From Bacteroidetes bacterium UBA6063 (GTDB lineage Bacteria; Bacteroidota; Bacteroidia; NS11-12g; UBA9320): DNA of 64,000 nt. The stretch lies in NCBI GenBank assembly GCA_002428905.1, contig DIYD01000106.1, positions 5,921 to 69,920 on the forward strand, read 5' to 3'. Position 1 is the first letter of the stretch; the number at the start of each line of letters is the position of its first letter. The notes under the pieces are model-generated. The model did no database searches and was not told where the DNA came from. It saw only the letters and a program-made list of their open reading frames with translations. Below, in pieces: positions 30,598-53,193 of the stretch. The position numbers and the translations under genes are program-made.

Positions 30598-31467
30598 ATG
30601 GATAAGAAATCAAATCACTCACTTACTATGATCGGCAGTGCTCTTGCGAAGTTTACTTTGCTGGGTTCGTTGGTTATAGGCTTGGCTTTTACGAGTTATG
30701 CGCAGGACGAGGATAGTTATGATGACTATTCGAGCGATGGGTATGACTACTCAGATGATGGATATAGCAGCGATGGATATGATGACTACGACAACCCGGA
30801 CTCAACCTACTCCGATGACTACTCCGATGATTATTCAGAAAGCGATGATTATGGAGACTACGGAAGCTACGGATCAAGTTCAAGTGGAACCGAAAAATTT
30901 GTACCAAAGAAAATCGTTCGCAAACCATATGTACGTTTTGTACCACCGTACGATTCAATTCGAGAATTAGTGCTTTATAAGGCCGTAATCGAGGTTAAAG
31001 ATCGAGAAGGATATGAAGTTGAAATCGACACGATTAATTGGCGCACACATCAGTGGCTAGAAGCTGAGTTTGGTAAAAACCTAAAGAAATTCCTCACCTC
31101 AGATGGCATTAATAACAATGCCGGTGAGATGGAATACAAGATTAAAATTCACGGAACATTCGTGTGCGAAGTTGAACCCAATGAATTTACTAAGGTGAAA
31201 AACGGACACGTTGAATACGACATGGAGATTCGTGTGCGAGACGGTCGTTACCGTTACACGGTAAAGAACCTGGTTCACGTTGCAGAACCTCGCCCAGGCG
31301 AAAAAGAGGGTGAACGTACGTACTTCGAATACCTCATGAAGAGCGAGGATAATGTACAAGGTGGAGACAAGGTATTGATTGCTGCAGATAAGAAGATTAC
31401 AGCAATGATGGATGAACTTCAGAAAATCTGTCAAACTTCTCCGATCGAAGAAGAAGACGACTGGTAG
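30598..31467 (+). CDS. Secreted protein with an extremely acidic D/Y/S-rich low-complexity N-terminal tract and a C-terminal globular domain of unknown function
   Basis: Signal-like N-terminus followed by DEDSYDDYSSDGYDYSDDGYSSDGYDDYDNPDSTYSDDYSDDYSESDDYGDYGSYGSSSSG, then a ~190-aa mixed-charge domain. A terminator follows. Confidence 0.5.
   Translation: MDKKSNHSLTMIGSALAKFTLLGSLVIGLAFTSYAQDEDSYDDYSSDGYDYSDDGYSSDGYDDYDNPDSTYSDDYSDDYSESDDYGDYGSYGSSSSGTEKFVPKKIVRKPYVRFVPPYDSIRELVLYKAVIEVKDREGYEVEIDTINWRTHQWLEAEFGKNLKKFLTSDGINNNAGEMEYKIKIHGTFVCEVEPNEFTKVKNGHVEYDMEIRVRDGRYRYTVKNLVHVAEPRPGEKEGERTYFEYLMKSEDNVQGGDKVLIAADKKITAMMDELQKICQTSPIEEEDDW
30703..30889 (+). repeat. Low-complexity coding tract for an acidic D/Y/S-rich peptide
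   Basis: Degenerate repeats of gat-gac-tac-tc(n) type codons, translating to (S)DDY / DGY units. Confidence 0.6.
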
Positions 31468-31492
31468 GCAACACCTACAAGAAATAGATAAA

Positions 31493-31527
31493 CCCTGTGT
31501 CAATGAACATTGACACAGGGTTTTTTT
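31493..31527 (+). terminator. Rho-independent terminator after the acidic-tract protein gene
   Basis: 13-bp perfect stem CCCTGTGTCAATG / CATTGACACAGGG followed by TTTTTTT. Confidence 0.85.
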
Positions 31528-31752
31528 GTGTCCTGATCATAGCGAAATGGGGTTAAACCGCCTTTTTTGTCTTAACTGTGTCAAGAAATGTTATCTTAAT
31601 GCTACCTTTTTAAAACTGGACAGACTAAGCATATGAAGATCAGTCGATTATAACGATTCGTTTCATTTCATATGTTAAGGAATCGTTTCCTAATTGTGTT
31701 GGTCTAACCCTAAATCCTGTAGGCAAACTGCAGGCTTTTACATGTATCGCTT

Positions 31753-32502
31753 ATGAATAACACGTTGTTGGCTTCGCCCTATTTGGATCTTTTTGACCCC
31801 GTATCACTGGAAGAAATGAACGGAGTGTCGTTAATGAAAAGGACAGACACCAAATTCCTGGTGAACAAACGACAACTGCCTGTTATTCTTGAAGAGGCTT
31901 CACAGCAATATCGCATCTTATCGATTAATGATGAGCGCTTGATGTCGTATAAAACGCAGTACTACGATACGCCATCTATGACGTTCTATCATCGTCATCA
32001 CAATAAAAGATCGACGCGAACCAAGGTTCGCATTCGCCAATATATTGAGTCGAACCTTCTCTTTCTGGAGGTAAAGCTTAAAAACAACAAAGGCAAGACA
32101 AACAAATCGAGGGTGCAATTGGAAAGCTGGACGGATACTCTGGGCTCAAAAGAACTACAGTTTATCGCCGATACATCTGGGCAACATTACAACCTGGCGC
32201 CCATCTTAATGAATGAATTTAATCGCTTTACACTGGTTGATCGGCAAATGCGAGAGCGTGCCACCATCGATCTTAATCTGCGATTTAATCAGGAGGAGTT
32301 TGATGAAGACCTTGTTATTGTTGAATTGAAACAGGAACGATTATCCCGCCAATCGCCCTTATTTCAGATATTAAAGAAAAATCGGGTTTACCCGAAAAGT
32401 ATGAGCAAGTACTGCATTGGTGTAGCTGCTCATTTTCCCGATGTGAAACAGAACAATTTTAAACGCCGTTTCAGGTCAATAGAAAAAATTAAAGAACAAT
32501 AA
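31753..32502 (+). CDS. VTC-domain protein (polyphosphate-polymerase-like catalytic domain)
   Basis: 249-aa cytoplasmic protein whose size and sequence (MKRTDTKFLV..., YKTQYYDTPSMTFYHRH, RTKVRIRQY, LEVKLKNNKGKTNKSRV) resemble bacterial VTC (PF09359-type) proteins. First gene of a coupled four-gene operon. Confidence 0.55.
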   Translation: MNNTLLASPYLDLFDPVSLEEMNGVSLMKRTDTKFLVNKRQLPVILEEASQQYRILSINDERLMSYKTQYYDTPSMTFYHRHHNKRSTRTKVRIRQYIESNLLFLEVKLKNNKGKTNKSRVQLESWTDTLGSKELQFIADTSGQHYNLAPILMNEFNRFTLVDRQMRERATIDLNLRFNQEEFDEDLVIVELKQERLSRQSPLFQILKKNRVYPKSMSKYCIGVAAHFPDVKQNNFKRRFRSIEKIKEQ

Positions 32503-32507
32503 AGCTT

Positions 32508-33113
32508 ATGGAACTATTTGGCATCCCAATTTTCGACGACGACTTATACAAGCTCGTGTTTAGGTTCGCAATTAACCTTGCCTTTCTAACTGTTATCATC
32601 CGTGGTTTTTATTACAGCAATACCAAACGGAAAGACTACCTCTTTACCTACTATTTGATCGGTACAATTGTGTTCATCTTATGTTTCACCCTGAAGAAAT
32701 TCGAGTTGGATTTGGGAATGGCACTAGGCCTCTTTGCCATATTCGGTATCATACGATATCGAACAGACCCAATTGACATTAAAGAAATGACCTATTTGTT
32801 TGTGGTAATTGGTGTATCGGTTGTGAATTCACTTGCCAACAAGAAGATGAGCTACGCCGAAATTCTCATAGGCAATTCCATTGTGGTAGCAACCATTTTC
32901 GTTCTTGAGCGTATCTGGCATGTTAAAAACACGTCTTCCAAGACAATTCAATACGAAAAGATAGAAAACATCAAGCCTGAAAATTACGATCGTTTGAAAG
33001 CAGATTTAGAAGAGCGAACAGGGTTGAACATTGAAAGCATTCGTGTGGGAGACATTGACTTCCTCCGCGACTCAGCTAAAATTACGATAACCTATACAAC
33101 AGAAGAACAATGA
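32508..33113 (+). CDS. DUF4956-family membrane protein
   Basis: 201 aa. MELFGIPIFDDDLYKLVFRFAINLAFLTVIIRGFYY plus three or four predicted transmembrane helices. Starts 5 nt after the VTC stop. Confidence 0.55.
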   Translation: MELFGIPIFDDDLYKLVFRFAINLAFLTVIIRGFYYSNTKRKDYLFTYYLIGTIVFILCFTLKKFELDLGMALGLFAIFGIIRYRTDPIDIKEMTYLFVVIGVSVVNSLANKKMSYAEILIGNSIVVATIFVLERIWHVKNTSSKTIQYEKIENIKPENYDRLKADLEERTGLNIESIRVGDIDFLRDSAKITITYTTEEQ

Positions 33114-33826
33114 ATATGAATAAAAGAATTATAGCCACATTAGGCCTTTTTTGCCTGATTTGTTCCAGTGTTTTTGCACAGGAAACCGTTACCGTTCGCG
33201 ATTTGGAAACCTGGAGTTCCATTGGATTAAGATACAAGTTCAACAAAAAATGGAGCATTGCAGTGCAAGAACAACTTCGGCTGAAAGACAACTCGTCTAC
33301 CATTGATCAGTACTTTACTCAGGGCACAATAAAATACAAACCGATCAAGCCCATTTGGTTTGGTTTATCTGCACGGTACATCCGCAACAACGATAACCAG
33401 GGCAAGATACAGGGTTACGAAAACCACATGCGTTTCCACGCCGATTTCGGATATAAGCACAACATCAGTCGCTTTAAATTGAAGTACCGCGTGCGCTATC
33501 AGCATAAAAATGAGCTTGGCATCAGTGCAGCAGATGGTGACGAAGCAAGAACGTTTGCCCGGTTTAAGGTAGACGGGAAATACAACATTAAGAAATGGAA
33601 GCTTGATCCCGGTTTAGCCGCAGAGATTTTCTACAACACAAGTAATTCTGTTGTAACCGACCAACTTCAAAGAATCCGGTTTACCCTGTATACAAATTAC
33701 GATGAATGGGATTTCGGTGACTTCAGAATGTTCTATCGGCTTGAACGTGATTTAAATACCACCTATCCCAAAACTACGCACATCGTTGGTCTAAATTATC
33801 AGTTAACCCTAAAGAAAAAGAAATGA
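33110..33826 (+). CDS. DUF2490-like exported beta-barrel-type protein
   Basis: Signal peptide MNMNKRIIATLGLFCLICSSVFAQ. Alternating hydrophobic pattern rich in R/K/Y/F. ATGA overlaps on both sides, with the upstream and the downstream gene. Confidence 0.4.
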   Translation: MNMNKRIIATLGLFCLICSSVFAQETVTVRDLETWSSIGLRYKFNKKWSIAVQEQLRLKDNSSTIDQYFTQGTIKYKPIKPIWFGLSARYIRNNDNQGKIQGYENHMRFHADFGYKHNISRFKLKYRVRYQHKNELGISAADGDEARTFARFKVDGKYNIKKWKLDPGLAAEIFYNTSNSVVTDQLQRIRFTLYTNYDEWDFGDFRMFYRLERDLNTTYPKTTHIVGLNYQLTLKKKK

Positions 33827-35190
33827 AAACGCATCGCACTTTATACATAATACCTCTTCTTGCCGGGCTACTATTTGCCGGGTGTAAGAAAGAAATTGAA
33901 ATCGAAGGAGAAGCTGTGTTGCCTGATTGGACAACCGCATCACACTCAAATGACGTTCCACCCAACTACTCCATGGTGTTCAACGATGACAAAGTACACC
34001 GCATAGACATCGTCCTTACTTCGGAAGAATGGGATGCTATGCAAGATGATTTGGCTGACATTCAGGGTTCAGGCGGAGGTCCCGGTGGTGGACCAGGTGG
34101 TGGTCCCGGACAAACATTTTCGGATGAAACACCCCAGTATTTTCCGTGCGATTTTTACTACAATGGTAAGCAGTGGTACGAGGTGGGCATTCGCTATAAG
34201 GGAAATTCTTCACTACGCGCAAACAGCAATAAACTCCCATTGCGGTTGGACTTTAACAAATTCCAGGATGAGTTCCCCGATATCCGCGGACAACGATTCT
34301 ATGGTTTTGAAGAACTTTCACTAAGCAGCAACTACAATGATGCTTCGCTGATTCGAGAGAAAGCGGCTGCAGACATCTTCCGCCATTTTGGGGTTCCAGC
34401 TGCCCGTACAGCCTTTTATGAAGTCTACATCGATCATGGTAATGGCCCTGTTTACTTTGGGGTGTACACCATGGTAGAAGTGATTTTTGATACGATGTTG
34501 GAAGACTACTTTGGAACCAATTCCGGCAATTGTTATAAACCTGAGGACGATGGCGCACAATTCGCACAAAACATATTCAACCTCGACGATTTTGAGTTAA
34601 AAACCAACGAAGTTGGAGGAGATAAAAGTGATATTCAGGAGTTGTTCAACATCTTACATTCGGCCGACCGAACGTCTAATCCGGAAGCGTGGAAAACAAG
34701 TCTGGAATCGGTGTTCGATGTCAACGGTTTTCTGAAGTATCTGGCAGCCAATAATACGATCCAGAACTGGGATACGTATGGCCTAATGCCACACAACTAT
34801 TATTTGTATCATGACCCACAGGATGGTCTAATCAAGTGGATTGTATGGGACAACAACGAGGCATTTCAAAACGGCAAGCAAGGTGGCGCTGTTTCACTCT
34901 CGATGAGCGAGGTAAACACCAATTGGCCTCTAATCCCCTATATCATTGGGGATTCTGAATATGAAGCGATATACAAATCGTACTTACAGCAGTTTATCAC
35001 CACCTCCTTTGAAAGTTCCAGAATTCAGGATTTCTACAGTGCGTATGAATCGCTGTTATATTCTTCGGCAGAAAAAGAACAGTCTGGCTATTCGTACATA
35101 AATGGTATTTCAGGATTTACATCCGCCATGAGTACGATGAAGACTCATAATACTAGTCGCATTGCAACCGTGAATGCGTATTTGCAATAG
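33823..35190 (+). CDS. CotH-kinase-family secreted lipoprotein
   Basis: Lipobox LFAGC. GGGPGGGPGGGPG linker. Then a ~380-aa domain whose layout and motifs (FPCDFYYNGKQWYEVGIRYKGNSS, YEVYIDHGNGPVYFGVYTMVE, YYLYHDPQDGLIKWIVWDNNEAF) match the CotH atypical-kinase family. A terminator follows. Confidence 0.55.
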   Translation: MKTHRTLYIIPLLAGLLFAGCKKEIEIEGEAVLPDWTTASHSNDVPPNYSMVFNDDKVHRIDIVLTSEEWDAMQDDLADIQGSGGGPGGGPGGGPGQTFSDETPQYFPCDFYYNGKQWYEVGIRYKGNSSLRANSNKLPLRLDFNKFQDEFPDIRGQRFYGFEELSLSSNYNDASLIREKAAADIFRHFGVPAARTAFYEVYIDHGNGPVYFGVYTMVEVIFDTMLEDYFGTNSGNCYKPEDDGAQFAQNIFNLDDFELKTNEVGGDKSDIQELFNILHSADRTSNPEAWKTSLESVFDVNGFLKYLAANNTIQNWDTYGLMPHNYYLYHDPQDGLIKWIVWDNNEAFQNGKQGGAVSLSMSEVNTNWPLIPYIIGDSEYEAIYKSYLQQFITTSFESSRIQDFYSAYESLLYSSAEKEQSGYSYINGISGFTSAMSTMKTHNTSRIATVNAYLQ

Positions 35191-35221
35191 ACTACATTCG
35201 GTTATATAAGCGATACCGATG

Positions 35222-35258
35222 GCCCTATGTCAAGAATTGATTGGCATAGGGTTTTTTT
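35222..35258 (+). terminator. Rho-independent terminator after the CotH-like gene, closing the VTC operon
   Basis: GCCCTATG ... CATAGGGT hairpin followed by TTTTTTT. Confidence 0.8.
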
Positions 35259-35289
35259 ATGGTTGAAATTTGTAGTATAAATTTTGATT

Positions 35290-37347: not shown

Positions 37348-37409
37348 TTTATAACTTTAAGGTGTAAAAAAAAGAAATATTTTTGTGACGCACAAAGACA
37401 CGCTTGAAT

Positions 37410-40400
37410 ATGATAAAATATAAATTGTGGAACAACATTCTGGGATGGGTCAGTTTTGCCATCGCGATGATCGTTTACACGCTAACCGTTGAACCATCAG
37501 TACCTCTTTGGGATTGTGGCGAATTCATTTCAGCCTCATATAGTTTACAAGTTGTTCACCCTCCGGGGGCACCGCTCTTCTTGTTACTCGGTCGATTGTT
37601 CTCCATGTTTGCCATGGGCAATCTAGCCAATGTAGCGCTGGCCGTGAACATGCTATCGGTTGTTGCTAGTGCATTAACCGTTGGCTTTACCTTCTGGATT
37701 ATTACACATTTTGCGCTTAAATCGTTGAATATCAACGTTGAAAAGCCTGAGGTGTCTTTGTCGCAAGCCGTAGGGATTTTCGGCTCTGGAATCGTTGGTG
37801 CACTTGCACTTACGTTTATGGATACGTTCTGGTTCAGTGCCGTTGAAGCGGAAGTTTATGCTTCTTCTTCTTTGTTTACCGCATTGTCGTTCTGGGGTAT
37901 CCTTAAGTGGGAATCAAACAAAAGTAAACCAACGGCAGATCGTTGGTTGGTGTTCATCGCCTATACCATTGGATTGTCCATTGGGCTTCACTTACTGAAC
38001 TTACTTGTTATTCCAGCGGTGGTATTGTACTACTTCTTCAACCGTTATAAGGTGAACAACATCAACATCATTAAGGCACTGGCTGTAGGAGCTGGTTCGC
38101 TGGTTTTCATTAACTGGGGAGTAATTCCTGGCTTACCGAAAATCGCTGCCTCTATTGACAAGATGTTTGTGAACGGCATGGGATTACCATTCAATTCAGG
38201 GGTCTTATTCACGGTTGCACTCGTAATTGCCGTAATGGCTTTCGCGGTTCGTTACAGTATTAAAAAACAAAAGCCGTTGTTAAACCTTGCTTTCCTATGT
38301 CTTACCTATATCCTCATCGGTTACAGTTCATATTCTATGGTGGTTATTCGGTCATTGGCCGAACCTCCAATCGACATGAACGATCCGGAAGATGCCTACA
38401 GCTTACTAAGCTATATTCAGCGTGAACAATATGGTGATCGTCCCCTATTCAAAGGGCCTTACTACAACTCACGACCAATCAACTACAAAGACGGTCGCGA
38501 CCACTATCGTAAAGGTGCAGAGAAATATGAGTTTACGGGTACGGCTATCAAGTACGAGTGGCGTGAGCAAGACCAGACCATCTTACCTCGTATGGGTGAT
38601 CTTACCGACAAGAATAAAGGGTACAAGTACTGGTACAATGAACGCACGAATTCTGACGGTCAGGTGGTGACACCTGATTTTAAGCAGAACATTAACTTTA
38701 TGATGGACTATCAGCTGGGTTGGATGTATTGGCGTTATTTCTTCTGGAACTTCGGAGGAAGACAAAGTGACAACCAAAACGTTGATAAAAACGTATTCGA
38801 CGGTAATTGGTTAAGTGGTCTTAACTTTATCGATAATGGCCGTCTTGGGCCGCAAGACGATTTGCCGGAATCAATGACCACCAATAAGGCAAGAAACAAA
38901 TACTACCTGATTCCGTTCCTACTCGGGTTGATTGGTATCTTCTTCCAGTTTGCGCGAAATAAATACGATGCCACCACGGTTACGGTGTTGTTCATATTCA
39001 CAGGTATTTTCATTGTAATATATCTGAATCAGCCGCCACTAGAACCGCGTGAGCGTGACTATACCAACGTGGGCTCTTATCAAACCTTCTGTATATGGAT
39101 CGGTTTGGCCGTTCTTGCCATTGCCGAATTCTTCAAGAAGTTTATGGGCCAGATGCCTGCAGCTGCCCTGGGTATTGTTTTATGTCTACCGGCACCGTAT
39201 TTAATGGGGTCTCAGAACTGGGACGACCACGACCGATCTGATCGTTACCTGGGTATTAGTTTTGCGAGAAACTACCTGAACTCGTGTGATAAAAATGCCA
39301 TTCTGTTTACGAATGGTGATAATGATACGTATCCATTATGGTATGCACAAAACGTTGAAGGTATTCGTACAGATGTTCGGATCATCAACCTGAGCTTACT
39401 GAGTACAGAGTATTATGCACAAGCCCTGACCCGCAAGTACTACGCTTCAGAACCCTTGCCAATGTCCATCATTCCAGAAGAGAAGTTACAAGATGGCCAA
39501 CGCGATATCGTATCGTACTTTGATAAAAACCGATTCTTCGCACAAGACCGATATCACAGTTTAAAGAAGGTGTTGTCGTTTGTTACCAGTGACGAGGATC
39601 AACACAAAGCTTCGTCGAATTACTCTAAAGCGGGAGAGCTTGAAAACTATCTTCCGGCGAGAAACGTGTATATCGAAGTGGACAAAGAAGCTGTTATGGC
39701 TTCAGGTACAGTGAGTGAAAAAGACACCGGCCGAATTGTTGACTATATTCAGTTCACACTGGGTAATCGATTGATGAAAGGTAGTATTGTGATGTTGGAC
39801 ATTATTGCAACCAACGCTGCAAATGGATGGGAACGCCCTATCTACTTTACAACGACTACCGGAGACGACACATATGCAAATCTTGAGTCGTACTTCCGAC
39901 ACGAAGGACTGACTTATCGTCTGGTTCCGATCAAGTCGAACTGGAATGCAGAACGTGGTTTGATCGATAACGACCTGTTATACAAACGCCTTATGGAAGA
40001 CTTTGTATGGGGTAACATGGAAAAAGGAACGATGTTCCTCGACCACAAAGCAACACTCGTTCCACGTAATCTGCGCGTGTTATTCGCTCAGGTTGCCCAG
40101 CGTTATGTTTCGGAAGGCGATAACGAAAAAGCAAAAGCCCTACTTCTGAAATCTTTAGAAGTTATTCCGGAGTCTATCTTACCAATGGACACCTATATCA
40201 AGGCATATTATATTGAAATGCTGAACACTACGGGTGAAACGGAGAAAGCAAAAGAATTACTTGCGAGTAATGTAAAACGCATCAAGGAAGAGAGTCAGTA
40301 CTTCTTAAAAATGCAACGACATAAAGATGTGCAGTTTAGAAGTATTGCCCGGTCAAAACTTACCGGACTTAATGGTGATTTGAATCAGGCGCTTGGTTTG

Positions 40401-40487
40401 TCAATGCGTTTATCTGATTCTACTTCAATGAATGCATTGAACGATTTGAGACTATTAATGCCTCAACCGCAAACACCACAACAATAA
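37410..40487 (+). CDS. DUF2723-family large membrane protein (GT-C/PMT-like glycosyltransferase fold with a C-terminal TPR-like region)
   Basis: The N-terminus (LTVEPSVPLWDCGEFISASYSLQVVHPPGAPLFLLLGRLFS) resembles the DxD-loop region of protein O-mannosyltransferases or ArnT. Ten or more transmembrane helices and a ~500-aa soluble C-terminal part. The ATG at 37410 was used because the track start is TTG. A terminator follows. Confidence 0.65.
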   Translation: MIKYKLWNNILGWVSFAIAMIVYTLTVEPSVPLWDCGEFISASYSLQVVHPPGAPLFLLLGRLFSMFAMGNLANVALAVNMLSVVASALTVGFTFWIITHFALKSLNINVEKPEVSLSQAVGIFGSGIVGALALTFMDTFWFSAVEAEVYASSSLFTALSFWGILKWESNKSKPTADRWLVFIAYTIGLSIGLHLLNLLVIPAVVLYYFFNRYKVNNINIIKALAVGAGSLVFINWGVIPGLPKIAASIDKMFVNGMGLPFNSGVLFTVALVIAVMAFAVRYSIKKQKPLLNLAFLCLTYILIGYSSYSMVVIRSLAEPPIDMNDPEDAYSLLSYIQREQYGDRPLFKGPYYNSRPINYKDGRDHYRKGAEKYEFTGTAIKYEWREQDQTILPRMGDLTDKNKGYKYWYNERTNSDGQVVTPDFKQNINFMMDYQLGWMYWRYFFWNFGGRQSDNQNVDKNVFDGNWLSGLNFIDNGRLGPQDDLPESMTTNKARNKYYLIPFLLGLIGIFFQFARNKYDATTVTVLFIFTGIFIVIYLNQPPLEPRERDYTNVGSYQTFCIWIGLAVLAIAEFFKKFMGQMPAAALGIVLCLPAPYLMGSQNWDDHDRSDRYLGISFARNYLNSCDKNAILFTNGDNDTYPLWYAQNVEGIRTDVRIINLSLLSTEYYAQALTRKYYASEPLPMSIIPEEKLQDGQRDIVSYFDKNRFFAQDRYHSLKKVLSFVTSDEDQHKASSNYSKAGELENYLPARNVYIEVDKEAVMASGTVSEKDTGRIVDYIQFTLGNRLMKGSIVMLDIIATNAANGWERPIYFTTTTGDDTYANLESYFRHEGLTYRLVPIKSNWNAERGLIDNDLLYKRLMEDFVWGNMEKGTMFLDHKATLVPRNLRVLFAQVAQRYVSEGDNEKAKALLLKSLEVIPESILPMDTYIKAYYIEMLNTTGETEKAKELLASNVKRIKEESQYFLKMQRHKDVQFRSIARSKLTGLNGDLNQALGLSMRLSDSTSMNALNDLRLLMPQPQTPQQ

Positions 40488-49347: not shown

Positions 49348-52300
49348 ATGAAACGTAAAGCACTTCTTTTGATTGCGTGTGTATTTGGGCTGTATTCGGC
49401 TCAGGCACAAATCAAGTTTGACCCTAAAATTGATGTCAATTTTGTTGCCGATACCGTAATGGTACCGGGAGAACCTCTTAAGTACCAGATCCTGTTCATT
49501 GGTGGATACGACATGGTACAATCTACTGCAACTTATGGTAATGCCGCAGGCAGTTCAGTATCTAAAAGCTGGAACGATTTTATCGGATTTACTCCGGATA
49601 CAACTGGACAAAGCCTGGGATGGGTATCGATTAACCACGAGCGCGTTGTAGCCAATGATAAATTGGGTGACGGTGGTGGAATGACCGTTTTCCGTGTAAA
49701 ACGCGACCCAAATAGCGATACATTGATTGTTATGGAGCAAACGCTTAAAGATGGTCGTAAAGGTGACTTCTTTAACGTTGACTTCGTGAATTATACAGGC
49801 GAAACAGGAATGAACTGTGGTGGTATCATCTCACTAGCAGATGGTCGTATCTGGACTGCGGAAGAGTGGATGCGTTACAGCAACCGCGACATCGCTGACC
49901 GTGATACAAGTGATTTCATCATCGGACAAGGAACCGTTAACGGACAAATTGCTACCTCTGGTTTCCCAGGTTTTAATGGGGAGAAAATCAAGAAATACCA
50001 AAACTATAACTATATGACGGAGATCGACCCACGTGAAGCTGTTGCAATACGCAAGCAGTACAACTGGGGTCGTCAGGCATTCGAAGGTGGTGTGATCATG
50101 GAAGATAACAAAACAGCTTACCTTGGCGTAGACAATACACCTGGTTTCTTTAGCAAGTTCGTTGCAGATGTTCCTGGTGACTTCACAAAAGGTACTACGT
50201 ATGTTTATCGTCACGATGATCAGCAACTACGCTTAAACCACTACTCTTCAAAATTAAATGCGTACGCAGAGATCTCAGCTTTCGACGATGTAAACAATAG
50301 AATTTACTCCACAAACTCAGAAAACGAAGGCGTTAATGTTTATTCCTTTATCGATGGTATGGTAGACAGCATCGGTTTCATTGATTTGAGCTCTTATGGT
50401 GAGGCTCCAACGTCTGTATCGGCGAACAACGGAATTTTAGCTGTTGCTATCCCAGGTACTTCTGTTGCCGCAAACGGTGTAGTTGTGTTCTACGACAAAG
50501 ACTACACAAAGCTTAAAGAAGTTACTGTAGGTGTTTTACCAGACATGGTTACGTTTACACCAGACGGCAAATATGTAATTACAGCGAATGAGGCTGAGCC
50601 TTCAGACGATTACAAAACAGACCCTGAAGGTTCTGTTTCAATCATCGACGTTTCAAACGGCGTAGCGAACGCTACAGTTTCCAACGCCACTTTTGATGGT
50701 GTTTCGATCCCTGCTGATGTTCGAATCTTTGGTCAGCATGAGAATACGGCAACTGATTTATTCTTCTCTGAGTATGCAGAAGGTAGTTCAAACAACAAAT
50801 ACCTTGAAATTTACAACGGAACAGGTGCTGAAATTGACCTTAGTACATACGCCTTCCCAAATGTTGGTAATGCTCCTACGGTTGTAGGTGAATATGAGTT
50901 CTGGAACACGTTCCCAGCTGGTGCAAAAGTTGCCAATGGTGAAACATACATTATTGCACATCAATCTGCTGATGCAAGCATCTTAGCGAAAGCAAACCAC
51001 ACATTCACATTTTTGAGCAATGGCGACGACGGATTCTGCCTGGTTAAAGGTGGTACCTGGAATGATGCCGATAATGACCAACGTATTGACGCGGGTGAGA
51101 TGACCGGTTTCACAAAACTTGATTGTATTGGCGACTGGAATGGCGATCCTGGAGCAGGATGGGATGTAGCAGGTGTTGCGGAAGCGACCAAAGATCATAC
51201 ACTTGTTCGTAAGGGTAGCGCAAACGGTAATTCTGACTGGACTGCTGCTGCTGGAACAACAACTGAAAACAGCGAGTGGATGGTGAAGAACAATGAAGAC
51301 TGGACAAACCTTGGCATGCATAACTTCAATGTGATGCACACACCTCAGCAAGATATGGAGCCAGAATACGTTGGTGTTAGCCCAGATTCAAAAACGGCTT
51401 ATGTTGCGTGTCAGGAAAACAATGCTATTGCGGTAGTAGACATCGCAACAGCTAAAATCACGAAAGTGATTGCCTTAGGTTTCAAAGACTACAGCCTTGC
51501 TAAAAACGCGATTGATGCAAGTGATAAAGACGACTCAATCGGAAACTTCAATGCGTATGCCAATGTATTTGGTATGTATCAGCCAGACGCAATCGACGTT
51601 GTTGAAATCGGTGGTAAGGTATACATCATTACTGCAAACGAAGGTGATGCTCGTGACTACGACGGTTTCTCTGAAGAAGTTCGTGTAGATGATCTAACAC
51701 TTGACCCAACTGCATTCCCGAACGCGGCTGAACTTCAAAAAGAAGAAAACTTAGGACGTCTTAAGACTACAACTACACTTGGTGATATTGACGGTGACGG
51801 TGATTACGATCAAATCTACTCGTATGGTGCACGTTCGTTCACGATTTGGGATACAGATGGTAACATCATCTTCGACAGCGAAAATGAATTTGGACGCATC
51901 CTTGCAGCACAATTCCCAGACAATTACGCTTCTAGCCGTGATGATGACAAAGCAAGTGAGCCTGAGTCTGTAACTACAGCTACAATCGATGGTAAGGTAT
52001 TTGCGTTCATCGGTCTTGAGCGCGCAACTGGTGTAATGGTATACGATATCACCGATCCTGCGAATGCTAAATTCGTTCAGTACTACAACAAAAACGAATA
52101 CGATTTGAGCCCAGAAGGCCTATTGGTAGTTGATGCAAATCAATCTACAAACGGTACGCCTTACTTAATCTCTACAAACGAAGCATTTGGCAGCTACGGC
52201 GGTTCGGTAAGTGCGTACGGCATTACTGGTTTCGACGGTAAGAAATGGGTTGAAATCAACAATACAGACATGAACAAAATGTTGAACTACCACCATGAGG

Positions 52301-53193
52301 CAGTTAATGTTGGTGCTACCATGTTCAACCGTTTGGAATGGGTAACATACGACAAGGAAACAAAAGCTGTTTATTTGACTGAAACAGGAAGAGACAACCC
52401 TGGTGGACGTTGGGCAGATGAAAACGCCAAAGGTGCAGTTCACGCTCCACATACACTAGCTCGTGCTCAGGAGCAAGGTACAACGCCAAACAGCTCAGAC
52501 TACTGGGATTACTACGGTCGTGTATTGAAGTACGATCCTGCTACAGAAGACGTAACTGTTCAAATTGAAGGTGGACCATATTCAGCAAGCTCTCCTTCGA
52601 TTTCTCAATACCCAGAAAACCACTTATCAAACCCAGACGGTTTATCAAACATCACTATTCACGGACGTCCATACCTGGTTATCTGTGAAGACCTGAACGG
52701 TACGTCTAACGGTCGTGTGCCAGCCGGTATCAGCAACCGTGCTTGTGAGTTATACCTATTGGACTTAACTATTGCTAAGCCAACAAACAAGGATCTAATC
52801 CGCATCAGTGTTGGACCAGTAGGTGCAGAAATCACTGGCGCATGCCCTACACCTGATGGCAAGACGCTATTGGTTAACTCTCAGCACCCAAGTTCTACAA
52901 ACCCTTTCCCGTATAACTACTCATTGACTTATGCCTTAACGGGTTGGGATTTGGAGAAACTGGTTTCGGCACACGAACTTCAGAAGAAAAACGAAGCCTT
53001 TACCGTTTACCCTAACCCAACCAAAGGCATTATCAGCCTTGACAAGGTTCAGGACGTAGCGATCTATGGAAACGATGGTCGTTTGATCAACGTTTACGAG
53101 CAAGTAATGCAAGTTGATTTATCAAACGAAGCTAAAGGTGTTTACTACATCCGTAATGCGGAAGGAGCCACCAAGAAAGTTATTCTGAACTAA
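49348..53193 (+). CDS. Large secreted multidomain protein: PhoX-like (DUF839) phosphatase segments + lamin-tail domain + phytase-like/choice-of-anchor-I beta-propeller + T9SS type-A CTD
   Basis: Signal peptide. A lamin-tail-domain-like segment (FFSEYAEGSSNNKYLEIYNGTGAEIDLSTYAF...FLSNGDDGFCLVK, about nt 50758-51030). Propeller-like repeats (MVTFTPDGKYVITANEAEP..., YVGVSPDSKTAYVACQENNAIAVVDIATAKI, GDIDGDGDYDQIYSYGARSFTIWDTDGN). A PhoX-family C-terminal signature NPDGLSNITIHGRPYLVICEDLNG. The C-terminus (FTVYPNPTKGIISLDKVQDVAIYGNDGRLINVYE...GVYYIRNAEGATKKVILN) fits the T9SS CTD. Confidence 0.6.
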   Translation: MKRKALLLIACVFGLYSAQAQIKFDPKIDVNFVADTVMVPGEPLKYQILFIGGYDMVQSTATYGNAAGSSVSKSWNDFIGFTPDTTGQSLGWVSINHERVVANDKLGDGGGMTVFRVKRDPNSDTLIVMEQTLKDGRKGDFFNVDFVNYTGETGMNCGGIISLADGRIWTAEEWMRYSNRDIADRDTSDFIIGQGTVNGQIATSGFPGFNGEKIKKYQNYNYMTEIDPREAVAIRKQYNWGRQAFEGGVIMEDNKTAYLGVDNTPGFFSKFVADVPGDFTKGTTYVYRHDDQQLRLNHYSSKLNAYAEISAFDDVNNRIYSTNSENEGVNVYSFIDGMVDSIGFIDLSSYGEAPTSVSANNGILAVAIPGTSVAANGVVVFYDKDYTKLKEVTVGVLPDMVTFTPDGKYVITANEAEPSDDYKTDPEGSVSIIDVSNGVANATVSNATFDGVSIPADVRIFGQHENTATDLFFSEYAEGSSNNKYLEIYNGTGAEIDLSTYAFPNVGNAPTVVGEYEFWNTFPAGAKVANGETYIIAHQSADASILAKANHTFTFLSNGDDGFCLVKGGTWNDADNDQRIDAGEMTGFTKLDCIGDWNGDPGAGWDVAGVAEATKDHTLVRKGSANGNSDWTAAAGTTTENSEWMVKNNEDWTNLGMHNFNVMHTPQQDMEPEYVGVSPDSKTAYVACQENNAIAVVDIATAKITKVIALGFKDYSLAKNAIDASDKDDSIGNFNAYANVFGMYQPDAIDVVEIGGKVYIITANEGDARDYDGFSEEVRVDDLTLDPTAFPNAAELQKEENLGRLKTTTTLGDIDGDGDYDQIYSYGARSFTIWDTDGNIIFDSENEFGRILAAQFPDNYASSRDDDKASEPESVTTATIDGKVFAFIGLERATGVMVYDITDPANAKFVQYYNKNEYDLSPEGLLVVDANQSTNGTPYLISTNEAFGSYGGSVSAYGITGFDGKKWVEINNTDMNKMLNYHHEAVNVGATMFNRLEWVTYDKETKAVYLTETGRDNPGGRWADENAKGAVHAPHTLARAQEQGTTPNSSDYWDYYGRVLKYDPATEDVTVQIEGGPYSASSPSISQYPENHLSNPDGLSNITIHGRPYLVICEDLNGTSNGRVPAGISNRACELYLLDLTIAKPTNKDLIRISVGPVGAEITGACPTPDGKTLLVNSQHPSSTNPFPYNYSLTYALTGWDLEKLVSAHELQKKNEAFTVYPNPTKGIISLDKVQDVAIYGNDGRLINVYEQVMQVDLSNEAKGVYYIRNAEGATKKVILN

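Follow-up and report, generated by a model that had tools for sequence, protein, structure and literature searches.

Do bacteria possess a VTC-type polyphosphate (polyP) synthase besides PPK1 and PPK2, and how does polyP get outside the bacterial cytoplasm? Both questions are raised by a four-gene operon encoding VTC, DUF4956, DUF2490 and CotH family proteins, which lies in a 64,000-nucleotide (nt) stretch of DNA (hereafter the window) from Bacteroidetes bacterium UBA6063 (GCA_002428905.1, contig DIYD01000106.1, positions 5,921 to 69,920 of the forward strand; window coordinates of the operon are given in Table 1). The operon also bears on the identity of the phosphoryl donor of exported CotH-family kinases, a widespread group also found in pathogens and in biofilm (pel) loci. 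Surface and periplasmic polyP has been reported in several bacteria, and we know of no exporter for it. We propose, with a little better than an even chance of being right, that the operon is a bacterial analogue of the eukaryotic VTC complex, in which polyP would be made in the cytoplasm and exported across both membranes, with CotH acting outside.

The assignment of the four proteins to these families was made in an earlier interpretation of the nucleotide sequence by itself (the sequence-only reading) and was borne out by Pfam profile matches, all of them far above the gathering scores; NCBIfam holds no specific model for any of the four. The first protein matches the VTC profile with 100.9 bits against a cutoff of 23, over 233 of the 235 profile positions. 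It consists of the VTC domain only, and no signal peptide, transmembrane segment or SPX domain was detected in it. The AlphaFold2 (AF2) model, built on 22 orthologues (predicted local distance difference test, pLDDT, 90.7), has the eight-stranded triphosphate-tunnel fold. Its top Foldseek matches in the PDB are structures of yeast Vtc4 (3g3r, 5iiq, 8i6v, 7ytj and 3g3q; E=1e-11 to 2e-10), the best being 3g3r_B (E=1.1e-11, TMq 0.65). Vtc4 is followed in this ranking by Vtc2/3 and then by hydrolytic tunnel enzymes such as YgiF, and cyclase-like and triphosphatase tunnel enzymes are also found among the structural matches.

The resemblance extends to the Lys and Arg residues of the Vtc4 tunnel, which the sequence-only reading had named as a point to check. 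In the first tunnel strand, where hydrolytic tunnel enzymes carry ExExK, R30-T-D-T-K34 of the VTC protein aligns with R-Q-T-T-K200 of Vtc4; R93 and R95 align with R264 and R266, and K108 with K281. These equivalences were obtained from two independent alignments (the orthologue profile against 3G3Q, and hhalign against fungal Vtc4 fragments, E=4e-5), and the residues equivalent to K200, R264, R266 and K281 are invariant in 81 orthologues. The alignment reaches the N-terminal half only, the fungal Vtc4 sequences being exon-sized fragments, and phmmer searches of the PDB with the whole VTC protein and with its C-terminal half returned nothing useful. R264, R266 and E426 are the residues that have been mutated to inactivate Vtc4, and R264A/R266A/E426N is the standard dead Vtc4 (PMC9911596). 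From family, modelled fold and tunnel residues we infer that the protein is a cytoplasmic triphosphate-tunnel enzyme of the Vtc4 polyP-polymerase type, which, if active, would represent a PPK-independent route to polyP. A sequence search of the PDB found no bacterial VTC-domain protein, and a literature search found no functional study of one.

The second protein matches DUF4956 over all 169 profile positions. Helices are predicted at residues 11-39, 45-63, 69-86, 91-109 and 116-136, followed by a C-terminal beta-alpha-beta-beta domain at residues 141-198 (AF2 model of moderate quality, pLDDT 75). Among the four proteins, conservation is highest in DUF4956, with 67-75% identity in Bacteroidota genomes in which the VTC protein has only 45-54%, and this difference suggests strong structural constraints on the membrane protein. 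Its conserved core reads CFTLKK-ELD-GMALGLFAIFGIIRYRT-x5-KEMTYLFVVIG-SV-NSLAN, and eight charged residues are invariant (K15, R19, K63, K64, D68, R83, R85 and K113); conservation is highest in this charged membrane core and not in the soluble domain. We detected no similarity to known channels and none, in sequence or fold, to Vtc1/DUF202. DUF4956 is proposed here to be the translocation partner of the VTC protein and, if it is a polyP conduit, it would be an analogue and not a homologue of the yeast VTC channel. The family comprises at least 1446 clusters at 50% identity (E<=1e-3), which indicates that the system is widespread.

The DUF2490 protein starts with a signal peptide ending in FAQ and shows the alternating hydrophobic/polar (amphipathic) periodicity of about 12 strands. 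All seven invariant Arg residues occupy inward-facing positions, and the conserved inward-facing columns hold 12 basic against 2 acidic residues. It is thus predicted to be an outer-membrane beta-barrel with a lumen dominated by conserved Arg and Lys, and the family is listed as a putative porin family (TC 1.B.81; PMC4827864).

The fourth protein, CotH, carries a lipobox in its N-terminus (MKTHRTLYIIPLLAGLLFAGC), of which Cys21 is invariant in 66 orthologues, so that the kinase domain should lie outside the cytoplasm. The lipobox Cys is followed by the consensus S/K-K/S-D/E-D/E-F, which we take to resemble the surface-lipoprotein export signal of Bacteroidota. Residues 153-405 match Bacillus cereus CotH (5JD9, E=9.1e-16); D317 (QNWD) and D343 (WDNN) align with the QNFD and WDYD motifs of the latter, and both residues are at least 95% conserved in the 66 orthologues, so the catalytic residues are in place, a point that the sequence-only reading had singled out for inspection. 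The two Asp are 23 residues apart in Bacillus CotH and 26 apart here because of a three-residue insertion. Mutants of their counterparts D228 and D251 in Bacillus subtilis CotH are inactive (PMC7821199). Ahead of the kinase domain lies a low-complexity insert, GGGPGGGPGGGPG (residues 83-95, window 34069-34107). Taken together, the four predictions support the layout that had been read from the DNA, with one protein each in the cytoplasm, the inner membrane and the outer membrane and a lipoprotein.

We compared about 160 related loci, of which 80 are from Bacteroidota genomes of different species (L001-L080) and 80 from a metagenome scan seeded with the DUF4956 of Pseudoalteromonas, the latter without attached taxonomy; open reading frames (ORFs) in these loci were called by a crude longest-ORF procedure. 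The VTC gene lies directly upstream of DUF4956 in 80 of 80 genome loci, DUF2490 comes next in all 78 that are not cut off, and CotH is found in 64 of the roughly 75 with room for it (58 with CotH downstream, as in the window, and 6 with CotH upstream). Adjacent genes are closely spaced, the gaps being mostly between -4 and +3 nt. Conservation does not extend to the flanking genes, barring a lineage-restricted ECF-sigma cluster in about 23 loci, and since the same order recurs in 58 of 80 loci while the flanks differ, the four-gene arrangement is far beyond chance. The synteny expected by the sequence-only reading is therefore present in related genomes. Both the four genes and their flanks recur in the closest relative, whose VTC protein is 88% identical, and the flanking genes of the window (DUF4468, Dps and 2OG oxygenase) are shared with this relative only.

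The pairing of VTC and DUF4956 is kept in more distant lineages and the genes around it change. Of the 56 metagenome loci with room, 54 have VTC immediately before DUF4956. Two plasmids from PLSDB show other arrangements, CotH>VTC>DUF4956 in Deinococcus and DUF4956>VTC followed by a phytase-like esterase in Shinella. Neither the Deinococcus locus nor the published Gram-positive cotH/VTC/DUF4956 loci have a DUF2490 or porin gene listed. Among the 35 genes directly following DUF4956 in metagenome loci that were left unlabelled by the four family profiles, 21 encode OprO/P-family porins (Porin_O_P, PF07396, best E=4e-66), seven family-I inorganic pyrophosphatases and two Omp85-type barrels. A stricter count, limited to the 55 loci in which the sequence continues for at least 1.2 kb downstream, places Porin_O_P directly after DUF4956 in 18, DUF2490 in 16, pyrophosphatase in four, an Omp85-type barrel in two, CotH in two and a gene without family in four; in the remaining nine there is no gene or one on the opposite strand. 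The order in porin loci is CotH>VTC>DUF4956>porin, CotH being there a larger lipoprotein, sometimes with a lamin-tail domain. All seven pyrophosphatases adjoining DUF4956 have lipoprotein signal peptides. In two of these loci (L117 and L122) the next protein ends in Lys-Phe, an ending that we regard as typical of outer-membrane barrels; one of the two has a signal peptide, and the ORF of the other looks truncated at the N-terminus. A Porin_O_P gene (E=2.4e-47) also directly follows DUF4956 in the PLSDB plasmid record NZ_CP142031.1 of Pseudoalteromonas sp. CuT4-3 (792 kb). In the same record the VTC gene (L087 5655-5969) is reduced to its C-terminal 104 residues and overlapped by a lamin-tail-domain gene, and the locus may be decaying or rearranged.

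These comparisons single out VTC and DUF4956 as the invariant core. Most diderm loci appear to add an outer-membrane barrel, which by sequence comes from at least three unrelated families, one of them dedicated to phosphate anions, and the set is completed by a variable exported protein, namely a CotH kinase, a pyrophosphatase, a phytase-like enzyme or a beta-helix protein. That unrelated barrels (one of them OprO/P) and exported pyrophosphatases share one operon slot provides a handle on function that is independent of any single annotation. The sequence-only reading had suggested phosphoanhydride chemistry outside the cytoplasm, and this idea gains support from the context, given that the third gene in other lineages is predicted to encode an OprO/P-family porin or a lipoprotein pyrophosphatase.

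Some of the families also occur fused. In 36 cluster members, which come from independent assemblies, DUF4956 and DUF2490 are joined in a single ORF of 460 amino acids (aa) that retains a signal peptide in its interior (e.g., L159 1525-2907); its product might be cleaved by signal peptidase, or an internal start might be used. Such an ORF ties the two proteins together, and its internal signal peptide implies that the C-terminal domain of DUF4956 is cytoplasmic. We also found one VTC-DUF4956 fusion (483 aa), with the domain order of Vtc4, and one DUF4956-CotH fusion (671 aa), in which the lipoprotein signal is kept as a potential extra membrane span.

A core of VTC and DUF4956 combined with a variable barrel and exported enzymes is the pattern expected of an inorganic phosphate polymer that is handled across the whole envelope. 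In the mechanism that we favour, the cytoplasmic VTC protein, placed in its family by sequence and fold, would elongate polyP from ATP in its basic tunnel. DUF4956 would dock the polymerase at the inner membrane and conduct the nascent chain to the periplasm, a role suggested by the invariant adjacency of the two genes, the extreme conservation of DUF4956 and the fusion ORFs. DUF2490 may then serve as an outer-membrane conduit or anchor for the polyanion, as suggested by its basic lumen and by its replacement elsewhere by OprO/P porins or other barrels. In the last and most speculative step, the CotH lipoprotein, on the periplasmic or surface side, would have the exported polyP as its substrate or partner; it might, for instance, draw on polyP for the phosphoryl groups that it transfers to targets in the envelope or matrix. 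Synthesis coupled to export is favoured because this is a polymerase-type catalytic domain, placed on the side of the membrane where ATP is. That CotH might take polyP as phosphoryl donor is an appealing idea, since a lipoprotein kinase has no supply of ATP, and we offer it as a tentative suggestion that is doubtful as it stands. About equally doubtful is the full combination, a PPK-independent polyP secretion machine in which CotH is a polyP-dependent extracytoplasmic kinase or polyP-transferase. If the full combination were true, it would explain how secreted bacterial CotH-family kinases work without ATP and how polyP reaches the periplasm or surface.

Several points weigh against synthesis and export with CotH acting outside. 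Functional statements throughout this work are drawn from sequence, predicted structure and gene context. In the C-terminal half of the VTC protein, E191 and S218/K219, which are invariant among orthologues, are what we take to be the equivalents of Vtc4 E426 and S457/K458, candidates placed by residue numbering and spacing only. According to a preprint, part of the DUF2490 lumen charge forms a buried salt-bridge network in many members, and such a network could mean a plugged and not an open barrel. The sequence-only reading had counted CotH as a member of the operon, which holds for most Bacteroidota loci, but CotH is not obligatory: 11 loci whose downstream sequence extends for 1.9 kb or more lack it, and in L128, L148, L154 and L156 (three of these four from human-gut metagenomes) a Cthe_2159 beta-helix protein (636-664 aa, E down to 9e-78) takes its place as fourth gene after DUF2490. 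CotH is for these reasons an accessory and not a core component. The VTC-DUF4956 and DUF4956-CotH fusions are singletons and could be assembly artefacts. Finally, OprP and OprO, which in Pseudomonas are the porins specific for phosphate and pyrophosphate, serve in uptake and are induced when phosphate is limiting (PMC9769906), and exported pyrophosphatases and phytase-like neighbours fit phosphate scavenging equally well.

These last points are the ground of the main alternative, the uptake of pyrophosphate or polyP, in which an anion-selective channel would let the anion in, exported enzymes would trim it, DUF4956 would carry it inward and the tunnel enzyme would hydrolyse or capture it. Many tunnel enzymes are indeed hydrolases, YgiF among the structural matches being an example, and besides the lipoprotein pyrophosphatases and phytase-like esterase that occupy neighbouring positions in some lineages, what is probably a secreted PhoX-like phosphatase is encoded about 14 kb downstream of the operon. 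We nevertheless consider uptake unlikely. The VTC protein is closer to Vtc4 than to any hydrolase and has R-x-D-x-K in place of the hydrolase ExExK, with the Vtc4 polymerase residues kept. The 78 upstream regions compared share no Pho-box-like motif, and no periplasmic binding protein or ATPase is associated with the loci. A kinase-fold lipoprotein and the link to Gram-positive pel operons are also hard to reconcile with nutrient uptake.

A less probable alternative is that CotH is an ordinary ATP-dependent kinase, which modifies proteins or polysaccharide of the envelope ahead of or in the course of their export or regulates their synthesis, and that VTC and DUF4956 make polyP for storage, stress or signalling, the genes being co-regulated with no substrate passed between their products. 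The authors of the Gram-positive pel work proposed just such a regulatory kinase role with cytoplasmic polyP, the catalytic residues of CotH are those of the ATP-dependent spore-coat kinase, and the dispensability of CotH in some loci would suit it. However, a lipoprotein with an invariant lipobox Cys is located where ATP is unavailable, and mere co-regulation leaves unexplained why the most constant third gene of diderm loci encodes an outer-membrane barrel, repeatedly a phosphate-selective one, and why DUF4956 and DUF2490 recur as a fused ORF. The least probable alternative, that the substrate of the VTC protein is a different triphosphate (a nucleotide, thiamine triphosphate or tripolyphosphate) or its product a signal and that DUF4956 is a sensor or regulator instead of a channel, can appeal to the diversity of the tunnel-enzyme superfamily, with its cyclase-like and triphosphatase members among the structural matches, to the lack of similarity of DUF4956 to known channels and to its C-terminal domain, which resembles a small-ligand-binding module and has been called an ACT domain (10.1101/2024.04.20.589940), but is opposed by best sequence and structure matches specific to the VTC polymerase clade, by neighbours consistently related to inorganic phosphate (Porin_O_P, pyrophosphatase and phytase-like) and by the peak of DUF4956 conservation in the charged membrane core.

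Under the favoured proposal of polyP synthesis and export, the closest known system is the yeast VTC complex, in which polyP synthesis and translocation are coupled and basic residues of the first transmembrane segment, TM1, line the pore (PMC9911596). Both share the catalytic family and fold, with equivalents of K200, R264, R266 and K281 kept, and in both the polymerase is cytoplasmic and has a small polytopic membrane protein as its obligate partner, the product being proposed to leave the cytoplasm. In contrast to yeast, the polymerase is here a separate soluble protein of 249 aa and has no SPX domain, hence no inositol-pyrophosphate control; DUF4956 is unrelated to Vtc1/DUF202; the proposed destination is the periplasm or cell surface instead of the vacuole; and an outer-membrane barrel and a kinase lipoprotein are added. 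The catalytic principle would thus be that of VTC, with a membrane partner, a trans-envelope extension and a kinase partner that are new.

The same three families, CotH, polyP polymerase and DUF4956, have been reported as accessory genes that accompany pel operons in Gram-positive bacteria, with no function assigned (bioRxiv 10.1101/768473). The trio of Streptococcus intermedius has been discussed by authors who assumed that the polyP is cytoplasmic (10.1101/2024.04.20.589940), and the families are also found in NELoc-2 of Clostridium perfringens (PMC2879425). As in our operon, the three genes of the Gram-positive trio (Streptococcus, Clostridium and Bifidobacterium) are contiguous, CotH is secreted, the VTC protein is cytoplasmic and has the catalytic residues, and the third protein, like our DUF4956, combines transmembrane helices (four in the Gram-positive protein) with a C-terminal domain. 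Our operon differs in its gene order (VTC>DUF4956>barrel>CotH), in having no pel genes nearby, in its diderm form with a DUF2490 barrel and a lipoprotein CotH, and in the absence of DUF4832 and the FN3 domain. The statement in the sequence-only reading that this neighbourhood has no assigned function still stands as regards function; the trio itself had already been described beside pel operons.

With the spore-coat kinase CotH of Bacillus our protein shares fold and family (5JD9) and both catalytic Asp. It differs in being an extracytoplasmic lipoprotein of a non-sporulating Bacteroidota bacterium and in having no serine-rich substrate encoded nearby, as no gene of the CotB/CotG type was found in the operon neighbourhood. 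By analogy, the operon also recalls the synthase-dependent secretion of exopolymers (Pel, alginate, poly-N-acetylglucosamine and cellulose), in which polymerisation at the inner membrane is coupled to translocation and which relies on an outer-membrane beta-barrel of its own and on auxiliary modifying enzymes in the periplasm or at the surface. Unlike in those systems, the polymer would be inorganic polyP, and there is no glycosyltransferase, TPR scaffold or cyclic di-GMP receptor here. PPK1 and PPK2 have the same proposed product, polyP from nucleoside triphosphate, but an unrelated fold, and their product stays in the cytoplasm. The comparison with OprP/OprO rests on family members that take the slot directly after DUF4956 in other lineages and on the DUF2490 lumen, which is likewise rich in Arg and Lys. 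DUF2490 is smaller (about 12 strands, 215 mature residues) and unrelated by Pfam, and OprP/OprO have been characterised as uptake channels of the Pho regulon (PMC9769906).

A literature search found no paper that assigns a function to the system, describes the diderm four-gene form or notes the substitution of the barrel by OprO/P porins. For the homologues in Bacteroides thetaiotaomicron, BT3498-99 (DUF4956 and DUF2490), the only functional data found in the literature are one entry in an iron-response table that is not statistically significant (PMC10434189).

The genes and boundary elements of the operon are listed in Table 1. The four ORFs are coupled as had been read from the DNA, with a 5-nt gap between VTC and DUF4956 and then two 4-nt ATGA overlaps. 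Public gene calls place the start of DUF2490 at the second ATG (236 aa), in which case the first ATGA overlap becomes a 2-nt gap. The window belongs to a metagenome-assembled Bacteroidota scaffold (ENA ERZ23496868, scaffold_73). The terminators reported on either side were recovered as hairpins, that on the 5' side with a stem conserved in the closest relative (L081), and no internal terminator-like hairpin was found on the forward strand within the operon. Recent horizontal acquisition was rejected, the G+C content being uniform (0.40-0.45) across the region.

Table 1. Genes of the VTC/DUF4956/DUF2490/CotH operon and associated elements, in window coordinates (UTR, untranslated region)
Feature	Coordinates	Strand	Description
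5' intrinsic-terminator-like hairpin	31490-31523 (element 31490-31533)	+	15-bp stem and T-run; terminates DUF4468, the gene upstream, and forms the 5' boundary of the unit
Intergenic region (promoter and 5' UTR)	31534-31752	+	
7-bp leader hairpin CCTGTAGG-CAAA-CTGCAGG	31716-31734	+	18 nt before the VTC ATG
VTC gene	31753-32502	+	249 aa; Pfam PF09359, E=1.1e-28
DUF4956 gene	32508-33113	+	201 aa; Pfam PF16316, E=7.9e-54
DUF2490 gene	33110-33826 (alternative start 33116)	+	238 aa; Pfam PF10677, E=1.1e-20
CotH gene	33823-35190	+	455 aa; Pfam PF08757, E=2.2e-60
3' intrinsic-terminator-like hairpin	35221-35253 (element 35221-35260)	+	13-bp stem and T-run; ends the operon, before a dps-like gene

The intergenic region upstream of VTC (about 225 nt) had been regarded as a long leader with a possible regulatory hairpin, and this part of the sequence-only reading did not hold. 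The closest relative has the hairpin too, with a single G-to-A substitution by which a U.G pair becomes U-A, and the leader as a whole is 85% conserved there, in line with overall divergence. Fold energies were ordinary compared with shuffled sequences (z=-1.1 over the 60 nt nearest the gene, z=-1.66 over all 225 nt of the intergenic region), and no comparable structure was present before VTC in 56 orthologous loci (60 nt each; median z=+0.42). The only match in an Rfam search of the region was at chance level and outside the leader. A riboswitch or attenuator was rejected on these grounds. No motif was shared across 78 upstream regions, although the PhoB site of Bacteroidota is undefined and its absence is not provable, and no consensus Bacteroidota promoter was found in the leader. 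With ordinary fold energy, no conserved structure, no Rfam family and no shared motif, we treat the leader as an ordinary promoter and 5'-UTR region. It contains a direct repeat, TGTCA-N5-TGTTA (window 31566-31580), which could be a response-regulator site; the repeat is kept in the closest relative only and occurs in one of the 78 upstream regions, and as a lineage-specific element it was set aside as a candidate for a Pho box or upstream motif common to the loci.

Other genes recur near the operon in some lineages. At a distance of 1-2 kb upstream of VTC, about 23 of the 80 genome loci, from Flavobacteriaceae, have genes for an ECF sigma factor, for a small membrane protein of the anti-sigma-like kind and for periplasmic proteins resembling Spy/LTXXQ, which could reflect envelope-stress regulation or lineage synteny, and YHYH/SCO1-like genes occur downstream of the operon in some genome loci. 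Both sets were judged to be lineage synteny and rejected as parts of the module. Directly upstream of VTC, nine loci (L126, L127, L141, L142, L144, L150, L152, L159 and L168) encode an exported protein of 130-157 aa, without Pfam matches and with no counterpart in the window. These apparently belong to two families, one repeat-rich and ending in a tyrosine-containing motif (EYxY in most), the other lipoprotein-type with a GTSxITG motif (L150, L152 and L159); a similar-sized ORF upstream of VTC is also present in L139, L146 and L166.

Elsewhere in the window, the probable secreted PhoX-like phosphatase mentioned above is a protein of 1281 aa (49348-53193, + strand) with choice-of-anchor I and lamin tail domains and faint matches to PhoX and to the type IX secretion system (T9SS) C-terminal sorting domain. 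Lamin tail domains accompany CotH in proteobacterial VTC loci too (L087 and L090). A polytopic protein of 1027 aa with TMEM260_N/DUF8416 domains (37404-40487, + strand) resembles protein O-mannosyltransferases, which is unusual for a bacterium, and is also encoded in the relative with the 88%-identical VTC protein. The gene upstream of the operon (30598-31467, + strand), separated from it by the terminator, encodes an exported DUF4468 (TBP-like fold) protein, the N-terminal region of which contains about 70 residues of low-complexity sequence rich in Asp, Ser and Tyr.

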